This document shows positions 39,480 through 46,074 of a stretch of DNA of 64,000 nt, piece after piece. The stretch covers positions 5,518 to 69,517 of the forward strand of contig CAYLNK010000001.1 in NCBI GenBank assembly GCA_964384675.1, written 5' to 3'. Position 1 is the stretch's first letter; every line of letters begins with the position of its first letter. Made by a program: the position numbers and the translations under genes. This DNA is from an uncultured Holophagales bacterium. Its GTDB lineage: Bacteria; Acidobacteriota; Thermoanaerobaculia; UBA5066. The notes beneath the pieces were generated by a model that was not told the origin of the DNA, did not search any database, and saw nothing but the letters and a program-made list of their open reading frames with translations.

Positions 39480-40739
39480 TCATCGCCCGCGGGCTTCGGG
39501 ATCGCCCGGGGAGTCGTCCGACATCGCTTCCGACACCAGGTCGGAGAGCGGTGTGCTTTTCCGTGGCCGCGAGACCATCGGAGTCTTCACCAGGAGCGCT
39601 CTGAGGGCGGGCGGCGAAAGGAACGTCGTCACGATCACCATCAGCGCGACCGAGCCGTAGAGGCCGCTCGAGAGCACTCCCGCCGCGAGCCCCAGCTGCG
39701 CGAAGATCAGCCCGACCTCCCCCCGGGGCACCATCCCCACACCGATGACGAGCCGGCGCAGGGGCCGCCCGAAGGCCGCGTAGCCGGCCAGGACCTTGCC
39801 GACGATCGCGACGAACGTGAGGAGCAGCCCGACCAGGAAATACGGCCGGGAGGCCGCGTCGAACGGGCTCAGGGCCTTCAGGTCGACGGCGGCCCCGACC
39901 GAGACGAAGAAGATCGGGATGAAGAACTGGGCGATGTCGTGGACCTCGTGCTCGATCTCCCGCCCTCGCTCGGTGCGAGCCAGGACGAGGCCCGCCGCGA
40001 ACGCACCGATGATGAGCGCGGAGCCGACGAGCTGAGCCAGCCACGCCAGCGCGAAGGCGTAGACGATGGAGGCGAAGAACAACGCCTTGGCCACCCGAAG
40101 GCGCGCGATCCACCGGATGAGGTACGGTGCGAGCCAGGAGCCGATCACGACCGCCAGGGCCACGAACCCGAAGGCGATCGCGAAGAGCTTGCCGATCCCG
40201 AAGGCGCTCATCTTCTCGCCCGCGGCCACCGCGCTCACGACCGCGAGGAGGACGAGCCCCAGGACGTCGTCGATCACAGCCGCGCCGAGGATCACCTGGG
40301 ACTCGTCGCTCTCGAGGTGCCCGAGGTCCGACAGGACGCGCGCGGTGATCCCGACGGAGGTCGCCGTGAGGGCCGCGCCGAGGAAGACGGCGACGGTGGG
40401 CGGGTAGCCGAGCAGCCATCCGACCCCGGCGCCTGCCGCGAACGGCAGGACCACGCCGACGAGGGCGACCGCCGACGAGGCCCCGCCCACCGAGAGCAGG
40501 CGCCGAAGATCGGTCTCGAGCCCGATCAGGAAGAGCAGCAGGACGACGCCGAGCTCCGACAGGAGATGCAGGACGGGCTGGTGCGGGTCCACGAGGTGCA
40601 GGCCGGAGACGCCGACGACGATCCCGCCGAGCATCTCCCCGAGGACGGCCGGCTGCCCGATCCGCTCGGCGAGCTCGCCGAACACCTTGGCGGCAACGAA
40701 GACGACCAGGAGGGAAAGGAGAAGATCGGCTGCGGTCAT
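39480..40739 (-). CDS. Monovalent cation:proton antiporter (CPA2 family, KefB/NapA-like Na+(K+)/H+ exchanger).
   Basis: 419 aa, about 12 TM helices. Characteristic segments GEMLGGIVVG, LLLFLIGLETDL and GAALTATSVGITARVL. The overlapping ORF 39439..40776 in another frame is rejected. Confidence 0.9.
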   Translation of the reverse strand: MTAADLLLSLLVVFVAAKVFGELAERIGQPAVLGEMLGGIVVGVSGLHLVDPHQPVLHLLSELGVVLLLFLIGLETDLRRLLSVGGASSAVALVGVVLPFAAGAGVGWLLGYPPTVAVFLGAALTATSVGITARVLSDLGHLESDESQVILGAAVIDDVLGLVLLAVVSAVAAGEKMSAFGIGKLFAIAFGFVALAVVIGSWLAPYLIRWIARLRVAKALFFASIVYAFALAWLAQLVGSALIIGAFAAGLVLARTERGREIEHEVHDIAQFFIPIFFVSVGAAVDLKALSPFDAASRPYFLVGLLLTFVAIVGKVLAGYAAFGRPLRRLVIGVGMVPRGEVGLIFAQLGLAAGVLSSGLYGSVALMVIVTTFLSPPALRALLVKTPMVSRPRKSTPLSDLVSEAMSDDSPGDPEARGR

Positions 40740-40764
40740 CGACGTTCGCTCCCATCGAATCCGG

Positions 40765-40787
40765 AGCGTTCCTCACGCTCCGGCTCT
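40765..40787. terminator. GC hairpin CCGGAGCG-ttcctca-CGCTCCGG between the DinB-like gene and the antiporter gene; possible terminator or attenuator.
   Basis: Perfect 8-bp inverted repeat with a 7-nt loop in the 143-nt intergenic gap. No T-tract. Confidence 0.25.
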
Positions 40788-40882
40788 CACGGCGCGAACG
40801 GCGGCCCGACCGTCTGCGGTTCCTGCGGGACGCCCGTCCCGCACCCGGCTCGATTGTAGGCCAGTCGTCCGGCGGCCCCGCC

Positions 40883-41386
40883 TCAGCCCGGACGGACGGT
40901 CCGTCCCGATGCCGCGGCGAGGATCTCGCCGACGATCTTCAGGTGGTGCCCCGTGTGGATCCGCGCGAACCGCACCGTCTGCGTCGCGGTCAACCCGCCG
41001 AAGTACGGGTGGCGCATCACGGGCACGCGCGCCGCGAGGAGCACCGGCCGGTCGACCACGGCCTGGAGCGCCCCGACGCATCGCCGGTGTGACTCGGCCA
41101 GCGCGTCGGACGTCACCTCCCGCCCCACGAGGGCCTCCGGCGACTTCCCCTTGCCGCGCGGGATCCAGCCGAGCGTCAGCACCAGGCGCCCACGCCAGTC
41201 CAGGGGCGGCATCGCCTCTTCCGACGGCTTCGCGACCCGCTTCAGCATCCCGGTGCCGACCCGGAGGACGTGGTCGAGGTGCTGGGCCGCCGACCAGGCC
41301 GAGACGCCCGGCGCCGACGGGAGCGGCCCCGCGACGAGGGTCGCGATGCGGTCGAGCTGGACGCGAAGGGTGTCCAGATCGCTCAA
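40883..41386 (-). CDS. DinB/YfiT-like (DinB_2 superfamily) four-helix-bundle protein.
   Basis: C-terminal ~167 aa: ...QHLDHVLRVGTGMLKRV...HRRCVGALQAV...RHPYFGGLTATQTVRFARIHTGHHLKIVGEIL carries the His-rich DinB pattern. The N-terminal ~260 aa of track ORF (to 42169) is low-complexity overlap with the aminoacylase gene. Likely TTG start overlaps the upstream stop (TTGA). Confidence 0.5.
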   Translation of the reverse strand: MSDLDTLRVQLDRIATLVAGPLPSAPGVSAWSAAQHLDHVLRVGTGMLKRVAKPSEEAMPPLDWRGRLVLTLGWIPRGKGKSPEALVGREVTSDALAESHRRCVGALQAVVDRPVLLAARVPVMRHPYFGGLTATQTVRFARIHTGHHLKIVGEILAAASGRTVRPG

Positions 41387-42981
41387 CGGGACGCCGGGGC
41401 CCTGGTCCCCGGCCCGAGCAGCGGGCGACCCGGACGGGCTCGTGTGATCTTCCCGCCGTCCACCACGAGCGTGCCGTTGACGGCCACGTACGGAAAGCCC
41501 GCCGAGTAGCGGTTGGGCTCGGCGAACGTCGACACGGCCCGCACCGCGGCGAGGTCGAACGCGACGAGGTCGGCCGCCATCCCGGACTTCAGCAGTCCCC
41601 GGTCGCCGAGCCGCGCGCGAGCGGCCGGGAGCGAGGTCATCTTGCGAACGGCCTCCTCGAGCGGCAGGAGCTTCTCGTCGCGGACGTACGTGGCGAGGAT
41701 CCGCGCCGTCGAGGCCCAGCCGCGGGGATGCGAGCGCTCCTGCGAGTAGATACCGTCCTCGGCCGAGGCGGGGGAGTCCGTGCAGAAGGCGACCAGGCGG
41801 TGCTTCACGCCGGCCCGCACGTCGTCCTCGTCCATGACGAACGTGATGCAGTACGTGCCGGCCCTGTCCGCGGCGACGATGTCCATGATGGCGTCGCGCG
41901 GGTCCTTCCCCTCGGCGCGGGCGATCTCCTCGATCGTCTTGCCCTCGTACGCCTTCAGGGAGGGGCTCAGCACGGCCGACACGAGAATGCCCGCGGGCCC
42001 GCCCGCGCCGACGTACTGGTTCGACCAGGCGTCGGAGTCCTCGGCCATGTCCCTCTTCGCGCGTTCCCGCAGGGCCGGGTCCTTCAGGCGCGCGAGCAGC
42101 GGATCGCGTCCGCCCTCGCGGATCCAGGGAGGCAGGCAGGCGTCGAGGCCGTTCGAGGCGGCGGTCCACGGATACTGGTTCGCCGCCACGTCGAGGCCCT
42201 CGGCGCGCGCCTTCTCGAGCCGCGCCAGGACACCGGGGAGCTTCCCCCAGTTCCGCTTGCTGGAGGTCTTCAGGTGCCAGACGTCCGCGGGGATCCGCGC
42301 CTCACGGGCGATCCGGAACACCTCGTCTAGGGAGGCGTCGACGGCGTTCCCCTCGGAGCGCTGATGGGTGAAGTAGACGCCCCCGTACCGGGCGGCCACC
42401 CGCGCCATCGCGATGATCTCCTCGGTGGAGTTGTACATGTCGGGGACGTACTGGAGCGAGGTCGAGACGCCGAGGGCCCCCTCCTCCATCGCCCGCGCGA
42501 CGATCGCCTCCATCTCGGCGAGCTCCTTCGGCGTGGCGCGCCGGTCCACCTTCCCGATCACGAGGTCGCGTACGCCGCCGAGCCCCACGAAGGTGCCGAG
42601 GTTGAGCGTGGGCGGGGTGCGGCGGAACCGGGAGAGGTAGTCGGCCAGGGACGTCCAGTCGGGACGGAGGCCGTAGCGCTTCCAGACGTCCTCGCTCTCG
42701 GCGATCTGCCGGGCGTTCGTGGGCGCGATCGACGAGCCCTCGCCGGTCACCTCGGTCGTGATCCCCTGGGTGATCTTCGAGGCCGCGCGGCGGTCCACCA
42801 GCGCGGCGTACTCCGACTGGCCGAGGAGGTCGATGAACCCCGGCGCCACGTGGAGCGCCGAAGCGTCGATCCGGCGCCCGGCGCGGGACTTCCGGTCCTC
42901 GGGGAGATGCCCGACCGCCGCGATCCTGTCGCCCCGCACCGCGACGTCGGCCCGGAACGCGGGCGCACCCGTTCCGTCCAC
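41383..42981 (-). CDS. N-acyl-D-amino-acid deacylase (D-aminoacylase), amidohydrolase superfamily; true start probably upstream of the track start.
   Basis: VDGTGAPAFRADVAVRGDRIAAVGHL...APGFIDLLGQSEY... aligns with D-aminoacylases. The family N-terminus (..DLVLEGGLVVDG..) and a Tat-like signal peptide are encoded in frame upstream of GTG 42981, to about 43095, without an ATG/GTG/TTG. Confidence 0.8.
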   Translation of the reverse strand: MDGTGAPAFRADVAVRGDRIAAVGHLPEDRKSRAGRRIDASALHVAPGFIDLLGQSEYAALVDRRAASKITQGITTEVTGEGSSIAPTNARQIAESEDVWKRYGLRPDWTSLADYLSRFRRTPPTLNLGTFVGLGGVRDLVIGKVDRRATPKELAEMEAIVARAMEEGALGVSTSLQYVPDMYNSTEEIIAMARVAARYGGVYFTHQRSEGNAVDASLDEVFRIAREARIPADVWHLKTSSKRNWGKLPGVLARLEKARAEGLDVAANQYPWTAASNGLDACLPPWIREGGRDPLLARLKDPALRERAKRDMAEDSDAWSNQYVGAGGPAGILVSAVLSPSLKAYEGKTIEEIARAEGKDPRDAIMDIVAADRAGTYCITFVMDEDDVRAGVKHRLVAFCTDSPASAEDGIYSQERSHPRGWASTARILATYVRDEKLLPLEEAVRKMTSLPAARARLGDRGLLKSGMAADLVAFDLAAVRAVSTFAEPNRYSAGFPYVAVNGTLVVDGGKITRARPGRPLLGPGTRAPASR

Positions 42982-43090
42982 GACCAGACCACCTTCGAGG
43001 ACGAGGTCGTCAGCCGGGGGCTGCGTGCCCGACGCGGCGCCCAGGAAGACCAGCGCGGCGGCGCCGGCCGCCGCCGCGAGGAAAGGCCGT

Positions 43091-43363
43091 CTAATAGCGA
43101 TCGCGCGGCGGGCGGTCGGAGGCCGCCTTCGGGCGCGCCTCGTTCACGCGGATCGTCCGTCCGTCGTGCTGCGAGCCGTTCAGCGCCTGGATCGCCCGCT
43201 GGGCGTCGGCATCGCTCATCTCGACGAAGCCGAATCCTTTCGACCTTCCGGTCTGACGGTCCATCACCACCGTGGCCGACTCCACGCCGCCGTACCCCTC
43301 GAAGAGGGCGCGGAGGCTGGCGTCGTTGACGGAATACGCGAGATTCCCGACGTAGAGCTTCAT
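43091..43363 (-). CDS. RNA-binding protein with a single RRM (RNP-1) domain.
   Basis: 90 aa. MKLYVGNLAYSVNDASLRALFEGYGGVESATVVMDRQTGRSKGFGFVEM. RNP-2 LYVGNL and RNP-1 KGFGFVEM are present. The 5' part of track ORF 43091..46027 is antisense artefact. Confidence 0.8.
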   Translation of the reverse strand: MKLYVGNLAYSVNDASLRALFEGYGGVESATVVMDRQTGRSKGFGFVEMSDADAQRAIQALNGSQHDGRTIRVNEARPKAASDRPPRDRY

Positions 43364-43435
43364 CTCGAGAGTCCTTTCGGGCGGTTGCTGGCCTGGAAGA
43401 TTATCACGCCGCACTCTTGGTACTCTCCCCGGCCT

Positions 43436-44665
43436 ATGGCCGAGATCCGACCGTTTCCCTCGGGACGTCCCGCGCCGGCGCTCGCCGCGCGCGTGGCGTC
43501 CGTCCCGTACGACGTGATCGACACCCCGGAGGCGCGGGAGCTGGCGAAGGGGAACGACGTGTCGTTCCTCCACGTCTGCCGGCCCGAGATCGACCTGCCC
43601 GAGGGGACCCCCCTCTACGCCGACGAGGTGTACGCGAAAGGGCGGGAGAACCTCGACCGCTTCTACGCGAACGGCACGCTCGTCGCCGACGGGACGCCGC
43701 GCCTCTTCGTCTACCGCCAGACCTGGCGCGGGCGCAAGCAGGACGGCCTGGTCGCCACCTGCTCGGTGGACGACTACGACGCCGACGTGATCAAGAAGCA
43801 CGAGAAGACGCGGGCCGACAAGGAGAACGACCGCGTGCGCCACGTGCTGACGCAGTCGGCGCACGCCGAGCCGGTCTTCCTCACGTACCGGGCGGCGGAC
43901 GACGTCGATGCGCGCGTCGCCACGATCACCGCGACCCCGCCGGAGTTCGACTTCCTCGCGCCGGACGGCGTCGGGCACACGCTCTGGCTCGTCCCCGAGG
44001 CGGACGCGGCGTTCTTCGTGGAGCGCTTCCGCGCGATCCCGATGCTCTACGTCGCCGACGGCCACCACCGCTGCGCGTCGGCGTCGCGGGCGCGGGCGGC
44101 CCTCCGCGAGAAGGACCCGAGCCTCTCGCCGGAGCATCCCGTGAACTGGTTCACCGCGACGATCTTCCCCGACCGGGAGCTCGCGATCCTGCCGTACAAC
44201 CGCCTCGTGAAGGACCTCCACGGGCGCACGCCGGACGGGTTCCTGGGGGAGGTGTCCAAGGCGTTCCGCGTGACCGAAGGAGCCGGCGCCGAGCCGGAGC
44301 GGAAGGGCGAGGTGCGGATGTACCTGGGCGGGCGCTGGCTCGGGCTGACGCCGCTCGCGCCCGTGGACGCGAGCGACCCGATCGGCTCCCTCGACGTCTC
44401 CGTCCTCCAGGACCGGCTGCTGGCGCCGCTCCTCGGAATCGGGGACCCGCGCACCGACAAGCGGATCGACTTCGTGGGGGGCATCCGCGGCACCGGCGAG
44501 CTCGTCAAGCGGGTCGAGTCCGGCGCCTTCGCGGTCGCCTTCTCGATGTTCCCGACGACGCTCGGAGAGCTGATGGCGATCGCCGACGCCGGCGCCACGA
44601 TGCCACCCAAGTCGACGTGGTTCGAGCCGAAGCTCCGCTCCGGCCTCTTCGTCCATCGATTCTGA
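43436..44665 (+). CDS. DUF1015-family conserved protein.
   Basis: About 409 aa from ATG 43436. MAEIRPFPSGRPAPALAARVASVPYDVIDTPEARELA...MLYVADGHHRCASAS... matches the DUF1015 pattern. Frequently found next to serA. The upstream part of track ORF 42719.. is rejected. Confidence 0.7.
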   Translation: MAEIRPFPSGRPAPALAARVASVPYDVIDTPEARELAKGNDVSFLHVCRPEIDLPEGTPLYADEVYAKGRENLDRFYANGTLVADGTPRLFVYRQTWRGRKQDGLVATCSVDDYDADVIKKHEKTRADKENDRVRHVLTQSAHAEPVFLTYRAADDVDARVATITATPPEFDFLAPDGVGHTLWLVPEADAAFFVERFRAIPMLYVADGHHRCASASRARAALREKDPSLSPEHPVNWFTATIFPDRELAILPYNRLVKDLHGRTPDGFLGEVSKAFRVTEGAGAEPERKGEVRMYLGGRWLGLTPLAPVDASDPIGSLDVSVLQDRLLAPLLGIGDPRTDKRIDFVGGIRGTGELVKRVESGAFAVAFSMFPTTLGELMAIADAGATMPPKSTWFEPKLRSGLFVHRF

Positions 44666-44749
44666 AGTACCGCGGGGGAGCCTACCGCCTTCGGCGGGCT
44701 GGCCGCCGCACCCCTCCGAGCCGCCGGAAACCCACCCGGGAGTCGTGAA

Positions 44750-45955
44750 ATGAGAGTTCTCGTCGCGGACAAGTTCGAGGAATCGGGGATCCAGGGCCTC
44801 CGGGGGATTGGCTGCGAGGTGATCTACGAGCCGAAGCTCGAGGGCGACTCCCTGGGGGCGCGCCTCGCGGAGACGGCGGCGGAGGTGCTCGTCGTCCGCT
44901 CCACGAAGGTCGGGGCCGCCGAGATCGAGCGCGGGGCGGCCCTCGCGCTGATCGTGCGGGCCGGCGCCGGCGTGAACACCATCGACCTCGCCGCCGCCTC
45001 CCAGCGCGCCGTCGCGGTGTCGAACTGCCCGGGGAAGAACTCGATCGCGGTGGCCGAGCTGGCCTGGGGGCTCCTCCTCGCGCTCGACCGGCGGATCGCC
45101 GACCAGACGGCCGACCTGAAGGCCGGCATCTGGAACAAGGCGGAGTACAGCAAGGCGAGGGGCCTCGCCGGCCGCACGCTCGGCGTGATCGGCACCGGCT
45201 CCATCGGGCGCGAGGTGATCGCCCGGGCGAAGGCGTTCGGGATGCCGGTCGTCGCCTGGAGCCGCTCGCTGGACGCGGCCGGCGCCGCGGCCCTGGGCGT
45301 GGCGCGGGCCGAGTCGATCCACGAGCTGGCCCTCGCCTCGGACGCCGTCTCGGTTCACCTCGCGCTGACGAAGGAGACGCGCCTCCTCCTCGACGCCTCG
45401 TTCTTCGGAGCGATGCGGGCGGGCGCGCTCTTCGTGAACACCAGCCGTGGCGAGGTCGTGGACGGCGCCGCGCTCCGGGCCGCCGTCGACGAGAAGAAGA
45501 TCCGCGCGGGGCTCGACGTCTTCGAGACCGAGCCGTCGGGCGGTACGGGGACGTTCGAGGACCCGGTCGTCGTGCTGGCCGGCGTCGTCGGAACGCATCA
45601 CGTCGGCGCCTCCACCGAGCAGGCGCAGAACGCCATAGCCGCCGAGACGGTGCGGATCGTGGCCGCCTTCAAGTCGACGGGCTCCGTCCCGAACGCCGTC
45701 AACCTCCTCGACCGGACCCCGGCGACGCATCTCCTGTCGATCCGGCACCGCGACCGCGTGGGCGTGCTGGCCCACATCTTCGGCGAGCTGCGCGAGGCCC
45801 GGATCAACGTGGAGCAGACCGAGAACGTGGTGTTCGCCGGCGCCGAGGCGGCGTGCGCGCGGGTCCAGGTGGACCGGGCGCCCGAGCCCGAGGTGCTGGA
45901 GAGGATCCGCAGCGGCCACGAGGACGTCCTCTCGGTCACTCTCACGAAAATCTGA
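44750..45955 (+). CDS. serA: D-3-phosphoglycerate dehydrogenase with a C-terminal ACT domain.
   Basis: 401 aa. 2-hydroxyacid dehydrogenase NAD-binding motif GVIGTGSIGREVA, then ACT-like C-terminus HLLSIRHRDRVGVLAHIFGELREARINVEQ. Confidence 0.9.
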   Translation: MRVLVADKFEESGIQGLRGIGCEVIYEPKLEGDSLGARLAETAAEVLVVRSTKVGAAEIERGAALALIVRAGAGVNTIDLAAASQRAVAVSNCPGKNSIAVAELAWGLLLALDRRIADQTADLKAGIWNKAEYSKARGLAGRTLGVIGTGSIGREVIARAKAFGMPVVAWSRSLDAAGAAALGVARAESIHELALASDAVSVHLALTKETRLLLDASFFGAMRAGALFVNTSRGEVVDGAALRAAVDEKKIRAGLDVFETEPSGGTGTFEDPVVVLAGVVGTHHVGASTEQAQNAIAAETVRIVAAFKSTGSVPNAVNLLDRTPATHLLSIRHRDRVGVLAHIFGELREARINVEQTENVVFAGAEAACARVQVDRAPEPEVLERIRSGHEDVLSVTLTKI

Positions 45956-46074
45956 CCCGCGCAATCGTGCCGGAACATCAGCCCGGCGCATTAACGCCTT
46001 TTTCGGGCGCGGCGGCCGGCGGCTCATAATTCTCTCCGAGCCGCGTCTCCTGGGCGCGCGGAGGGAGAGAAGGC

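Follow-up and report, generated by a model that had tools for sequence, protein, structure and literature searches.

In the 64,000-nucleotide stretch of DNA from an uncultured Holophagales bacterium analyzed here (the window), a gene coding for an exported amidohydrolase lacks any canonical start codon at the position where its orthologs begin. We think that this gene is nevertheless intact and expressed, with a probability of about 0.78, translation starting from an AUU codon (ATT 43095-43093) that overlaps the stop codon ending the preceding gene rbp. The product would be a 570-amino-acid precursor, carrying a signal that is likely of the Sec type, and initiation would likely occur by termination-reinitiation after translation of rbp.

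Between TGA 43146-43144 and GTG 42981, the minus-strand reading frame of the amidohydrolase is uninterrupted; this GTG is the first ATG, GTG, or TTG of the frame and the start employed by gene callers, and a codon-by-codon read encounters none of these three codons among the 54 situated in between. The near-cognate codons within these 54 are just ATC 43101-43099, ATT 43095-43093, and CTG at 43053, 43044, and 42987. An earlier note on this DNA, with whose coordinates and translation of the upstream frame our reading matches, had already stated that a canonical start is lacking upstream of GTG 42981, and this is confirmed. Its figure of about 38 codons back to a TGA is correct for the distance between GTG and ATT, whereas the TGA is 54 codons away. 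The surrounding DNA has a GC content of 72%, a context in which open frames arise by chance. The features of the locus are compiled in Table 1.

Table 1. Features of the rbp-amidohydrolase locus and of related junctions; coordinates refer to the window unless a contig is named.
Feature	Coordinates	Strand	Description
Corrected CDS, putative exported Amidohydro_3-family protein	41383..43095	-	570 aa, ATT 43095 to TGA 41385-41383; PF07969; query coverage by orthologs (563-576 aa) up to 100%
Signal peptide, predicted	43027..43095	-	About residues 1-23, I/M-RRPFLAAAAGAAALVFLGAASG; homologous to MKRxxxAAAxxAAAFFLL of the orthologs
Peptide GTQPPADDLVLEGGLVVDGTGAPAFR			Within the predicted extension, upstream of Val39; preceded by S
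β-Strand 1 of the conserved N-terminal domain	42982..43005	-	Residues 31-38, LVLEGGLV; strand in the AlphaFold model; wholly upstream of the called GTG
GTG (Val39)	42979..42981	-	Start chosen by gene callers, giving a 532-aa product (P0001); probable mis-call
rbp, 90-aa RRM-type RNA-binding protein	43091..43363	-	ATG 43363, TAG 43093-43091; PF00076 (RRM_1), E = 2.9e-22
ATTAG junction	43091..43095	-	Base 43093 common to the proposed start ATT 43095-43093 and the rbp stop TAG 43093-43091; motif TATTAG
DinB_2-family gene, downstream	40883..41386	-	TTG start within a -4 overlap (TTGA, 41383-41386) with the stop TGA of the amidohydrolase gene
Second start-less junctions	L006:2359-2420, L008:2408-2470, L091:1411-1470		rbp ends with CGC-TGA; an in-frame CTG overlaps the stop (CTGA)

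Several lines of comparison indicate that the extension upstream of Val39 is coding. Alignments with Pfam, NCBIfam, and PDB entries begin at residues 24-31 of the extended protein (those with NCBIfam models at residues 27-31), about 8-15 residues before Val39, and the D-aminoacylase of A. faecalis (1M7J) is aligned from query residue 29 (DDLVLEGG...), corresponding to residue 9 of its chain. An AlphaFold2 model based on 37 sequences (pTM 0.87) places β-strand 1 at residues 31-38, in a block with a pLDDT of about 98, and a helix of low confidence at residues 5-20, within the signal-peptide region; as judged from this model, a start at Val39 would remove the entire β-strand 1. Nearly all of the 120 best homologs consist of 563-576 amino acids and possess an N-terminal signal peptide, typically MKRxxxAAAxxAAAFFLL, with MKR(A/P)(F/L) at its beginning. 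When the ortholog P0031 (MKRPFLAL) is aligned with the window (IRRPFLAA), the Met of the ortholog falls on the ATT codon, and counting from this ATT, 28 residues precede the domain, the median of the orthologs being 27. The comparison of ortholog starts, which the earlier note had proposed as a check, thus aligns their Met with ATT 43095, and the 38 codons from there to GTG encode a signal-peptide region of 28 residues and the first β-strand. That a signal peptide and the conserved strand DDLVLEGGLV are encoded upstream of the sole canonical start had been claimed from the window alone, and alignments, orthologs, and structural model all agree with it.

The predicted signal is short (about 23-28 amino acids) and comprises a positively charged n-region, (M)RR, a hydrophobic h-region, and a plausible c-region (GAAS-G). 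The Kyte-Doolittle maximum of the h-region, over 12 residues, amounts to 2.23, the median of the orthologs being 2.38. The earlier note had regarded the signal as a twin-arginine type on the basis of RRxFL. RRPFL is indeed similar to the core of the Tat motif (S/T-R-R-x-F-L-K), but the classification is not supported: the Tat profile TIGR01409 gives 14.2 bits and remains below its cutoff of 16.7, and Pfam TAT_signal finds no match, the sole Pfam match, PF10399, being below its own threshold. Among 110 full-length orthologs, which start with MKR in 51 cases and with MTR in 15, an RR in the n-region is encountered in just 3 and RRxFL in none. According to these counts, the twin arginine is specific for this lineage, and it seems more likely that the signal is of the Sec type, in which a Lys has been changed to Arg in this lineage.

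Besides the window, five further assemblies were compared (Logan SRR10823759, JGI 3300028842, Logan SRR19226371, SRR31809896, and Ga0268298). The sequence CGCTATTAG is invariant in all six, i.e., in the window, L001 to L004, and L092, five of which come from named different samples and which together represent three diverged lineages. A pattern scan of metagenomes, in which all four bases of TATT were left free, retrieved one relevant contig (L092, from Ga0268298) and one chance match (L093), and no variant with ATG at the position of ATT. L003/L092 and L004 constitute distinct lineages with amino acid identities of 94.6% and 93.3% to the window and a dS of about 0.26. Comparison of the lineages yields dN/dS ratios of 0.10-0.13 over the mature part (about 530 codons) and of 0.16-0.39 over the 38-codon extension, in which neither an indel nor a stop codon has appeared at an extension dS of 0.33-0.40. 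These ratios indicate that the extension is under purifying selection. The invariance of TATTAG is equally well explained by constraint on the Tyr and stop codons of rbp, and conservation of ATT by itself is no proof of its use. When other genes of the window were inspected for a codon-position GC pattern ahead of their called starts, no convincing further start-less gene was found; with no other evident non-canonical start in the window, such starts do not seem to be a habit of the whole lineage.

Of the other in-frame near-cognate codons, ATC 43101 and the CTG codons at 43053 and 43044 might serve for initiation instead, although we consider this improbable. The ATC (43099..43101, minus strand), which the earlier note had listed together with ATT as a candidate initiator, is replaced by ACC in L003, lies inside the coding sequence of rbp, and is situated two codons 5' of the position of the ortholog Met; it was therefore rejected, whereas ATT 43095 is retained on account of the ortholog Met, the pre-domain length, and its invariance. 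Initiation at CTG 43053 would yield M-VFLGAASG, in which the charged n-region is missing and half of the hydrophobic core is left, so that a functional signal peptide would not be formed.

There is also little chance that GTG 42981, or a codon close to it, is the true start of a 532-residue cytoplasmic enzyme without signal peptide and that the upstream frame is a relic. This GTG is the sole canonical start and is chosen by all gene callers, and chains of the 1M7J type from A. faecalis have just about 8-20 residues in front of the first conserved strand, which is too short for a signal peptide. However, the whole first β-strand would be lost with such a start, and the GTG is not conserved, as it reads GTC in L003, where gene callers take the preceding GTG. 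Furthermore, the signal peptide retained in the supposed relic is typical in both length and hydrophobicity, and the extension, as outlined above, has been kept free of indels under purifying selection.

Directly upstream of the amidohydrolase gene, in the window as in many relatives, lies rbp, whose product scores above the cutoff of the model NF058537 (Rbp_regulator) with 115 versus 100 bits. Both genes are co-directional, and the first gene's stop codon overlaps the putative start codon of the second. The earlier reader had overlooked rbp as well as this overlap of ATT with TAG, and the residues listed there upstream of ATT, TRRARRRPPTARRAIA, correspond to the 3' end of rbp read in another frame. 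With its 5 nt, the overlap belongs to a -5 class (ATTAG) and displays neither the -4 (NTGA) nor the -1 (TRATG) spacing; being outside these common coupling spacings, it counts against coupling. In the 20 nt located 5' of ATT (CCGCCGCGCGATCGCT), there is no purine-rich Shine-Dalgarno (SD) sequence. The lack of an SD sequence, together with the overlap of AUU and UAG, makes it most likely that initiation is due to ribosomes that have terminated on rbp. Folding of the mRNA around the junction gave a minimum free energy of -58.1 kcal/mol, which is not distinguishable from that of shuffled sequence (z = 0.82) and thus lends no support to a coupling element of the unfolding type.

According to the proposed mechanism, ribosomes that have just finished translation at the UAG of rbp would reinitiate at AUU, the P site being shifted by just 1 nt from UAU to AUU, and AUU would be decoded as formylmethionine by the initiator tRNA; the resulting precursor would carry a cleavable signal peptide. 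The arrangement likely originated from the loss of a spacer of 16-52 nt between rbp and the amidohydrolase gene, which is known from relatives, and would then have been fixed by the overlap itself, as a canonical NTG would lengthen Rbp. A change of ATT to ATG turns the rbp stop TAG into GAG and extends Rbp from 90 to 117 amino acids (27 additional residues). As any NTG at this position destroys the stop codon in this manner, a reversion to a canonical start would be blocked. More generally, stop codons cannot begin with G, and a -5 overlap is therefore impossible with ATG, GTG, or TTG; this incompatibility with start codons ending in G would account for the persistence of the unusual codon. 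AUU is a poor initiator, against which IF3 discriminates in E. coli, and the output from the amidohydrolase gene could be very low. In E. coli reporters, initiation at AUU reaches about 1-2% of that at AUG (bioRxiv 10.1101/063800), and for this reason expression is probably low and tied to the translation of rbp. Coupling by termination and reinitiation that depends on overlapping genes has been described (PMC12548453, PMC6728339), and among the papers searched for reinitiation at non-AUG codons in bacteria, none was directly on point.

The same junction would permit a programmed +1 frameshift at UAU-UAG-A, fusing Rbp to the amidohydrolase and making a separate start unnecessary. The amidohydrolase frame is indeed +1 relative to that of rbp, and the shift site would coincide with a stop codon, as is the case in prfB. 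We regard such a shift as very improbable, however, since tRNA-Tyr is unable to re-pair on AUU, an SD-like stimulator is absent, and the signal peptide would end up in the interior of the fusion protein. In addition, relatives have separate genes with spacers of 5-52 nt and starts of their own, and no fusion of about 660 amino acids occurs among the 120 best homologs, which comprise 527-576 residues except for the 708-residue P0081.

Pseudogenization commonly begins with loss of the canonical start, and the gene might accordingly be viewed as decaying, its start having disappeared upon deletion of the spacer. This explanation is very unlikely as well, given a dN/dS of 0.10-0.13 over about 530 codons at a dS of about 0.26 in three lineages, zero stop codons or frameshifts, and a downstream DinB_2-family gene that is still coupled through its TTGA overlap. 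Errors of sequencing or assembly that mask a frameshift or an ordinary start (ATG or GTG) are usually the first suspicion for MAG-derived sequences. A sequencing error had been raised as an option in the earlier note, and an unrelated relative (L018, an MFD-series MAG) does appear to have a frameshift at the start of the gene. Such an error is hardly conceivable here, as the identical ATT is found in the window and in five further assemblies, which stem from different samples and projects and comprise lineages that differ at about 5-7% of their residues.

Expression from AUU, which we favor over all of these alternatives, would take place within a compact transcription unit, since rbp, the amidohydrolase gene, and dinB_2 are packed without spacers and thus appear to form one tight operon. 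A scan of positions 40700-43700 for promoters and terminators, which is uninformative for this phylum, gave no match.

In many relatives from the Acidobacteriota/Thermoanaerobaculia, rbp and the amidohydrolase gene have remained adjacent, and a divergently oriented DUF1015 gene usually lies upstream. In the nearest relatives with canonical starts, the amidohydrolase begins with TTG 16 nt (L085), with ATG 28 nt (L086), or with ATG 52 nt (L087/L088, following GGAGGG) past the stop codon of rbp, and these canonical starts in close relatives indicate that the adjacency is ancestral. The C-terminus of Rbp (...RY-stop) is common to the window and L087. Evidently, the lineage of the window has lost the spacer, and the two genes now overlap.

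A second group lacking a canonical start consists of L006 (JBDTTJ010000279), L008 (CAWIUK010000009), and L091 (JGI 3300055024), in which no ATG, GTG, or TTG occurs before the signal peptide (...PLPLKRILAAA-PIAAFFLL...). Sister lineages L013 and L017 employ an ATG three codons later, in place of which L008 has ACG and both L006 and L091 have CCG, and the start region is alignable without indels across both subclades (L006/L008/L091 and L013/L017). These sequences are consistent with initiation at a stop-overlapping CUG in L006, L008, and L091. It is a tentative idea, and rather a doubtful one, that termination-reinitiation on an abutting, well-translated rbp may render a canonical start dispensable, and that for this reason two separate start-less lineages have arisen, one with AUUAG and one with CUGA. 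The 527-residue P0042 was considered as a further start-less case and discarded: in L089 (1385-1395) and L090 (620-630), a GTG in the proper frame follows the stop codon of rbp at a distance of 5 nt, and the call of P0042 from the equivalent internal GTG therefore represents a truncation by the gene caller.

With respect to its enzymatic identity, the protein is clearly a relative of D-aminoacylases, as it matches PF07969 (Amidohydro_3; E = 3.4e-18) and 1M7J (E = 6e-80) and displays the Amidohydro_3 fold with an N-terminal β-domain. In this respect the designation as D-aminoacylase in the earlier note is justified as far as kinship is concerned, whereas the specific label is not, for the HxH motif and the Cys ligand of characterized D-aminoacylases (1M7J, 3GIP) are missing from the query. 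Both HxH and the Cys of TGNCG provide metal ligands in 1M7J. LLGQSE takes the place of the HxH following PGFID, both in the query (window 42790-42850, minus strand) and in 114 of the 120 orthologs. In the query, TGNCG has become TGE-G (TGEGSS, window 42735-42760), and at least 87 of these orthologs display a motif TTEVTGEG; the Cys is also missing from most of the orthologs showing the motif. The best NCBIfam model, NF006560 (amidohydrolase family protein), yields 200.9 bits and stays below its cutoff of 340. An annotation as D-aminoacylase is thus probably wrong in detail, the metal site seeming to be altered, and exported amidohydrolase of unknown substrate would be a defensible name.

Comparison with known systems makes it well supported that the locus joins a documented class of conserved non-canonical starts, with the ATTAG overlap with an upstream stop codon as its distinguishing detail. 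For EbpA of E. faecalis, an ATT start mis-annotated as a downstream ATG is described as having been deduced in silico, then verified by mutagenesis, the rare codon attenuating expression (abstract of PMC4447247). As in ebpA, a secreted protein is concerned, for which a canonical codon farther downstream has been annotated as the start and an upstream ATT is proposed; in contrast to ebpA, whose ATT the abstract of PMC4447247 does not tie to any upstream stop, the ATT of the window overlaps an upstream TAG, lacks an SD sequence, and is a prediction. Passages on infC and pcnB of E. coli report conserved AUU starts of low efficiency (bioRxiv 10.1101/063800, PMC5499595). Conservation of AUU, its proposed reading by initiator tRNA, and a low efficiency would be shared with our case, but nothing points to a role of an exported amidohydrolase in the sensing of IF3. 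The AUU of infC, for its part, serves autoregulation by sensing the level of IF3. For Deinococcus, the abstract of PMC2830850 describes an ATC start of dnaA and a CTG start of rpsL proven by N-terminal proteomics; these resemble the start proposed here in being conserved near-cognates of a high-GC bacterium missed by gene callers and differ from it in that ours is derived from sequence comparison, and an overlap with a stop codon is absent from that abstract. Stop/start coupled pairs with NTGA (-4) or TAATG (-1) spacing (PMC12548453, PMC6728339) are likewise co-directional and overlapping and need no SD sequence, and the TTGA at 41386 provides a pair of this kind in the same operon; unlike them, the junction with rbp has a -5 overlap (ATTAG), and its dependence on the translation of rbp is a proposal.

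The identical protein, together with its 90% cluster, is encountered on 23 contigs, and every public call that we found there (P0001 and the cluster) is 38 residues short and thus devoid of the signal peptide and of one strand; predictions of localization and fold made from such truncated entries would consequently be wrong. The locus overturns nothing known but seems to offer a natural example of a conserved AUU with comparative evidence from several wild populations. Together with the second start-less lineage, it provides a testable case for the tolerance of reinitiating ribosomes toward near-cognate codons. If our reading is true, near-cognates overlapping stop codons might constitute a systematically missed class of bacterial starts, used by post-termination ribosomes that escape the discrimination of start codons.

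Two minor observations concern frames at or near such junctions. In the frame of rbp, an ORF of 978 amino acids beginning with ATG extends over window positions 43091-46027 (minus strand); it seems to be a shadow ORF of high-GC DNA, antisense to a DUF1015 gene (about 43436-44665, plus strand) and to a 2-hydroxyacid dehydrogenase gene (44750-45955, plus strand), the real rbp being its last 90 codons. In L018, around 2420-2440, just 24 codons separate the opening of the frame (…*KSCCLAVLVG…) from the mature domain, at a place where relatives have MKKLL…; this suggests an indel of 1 nt, either a genuine frameshift or a fault of the assembly.
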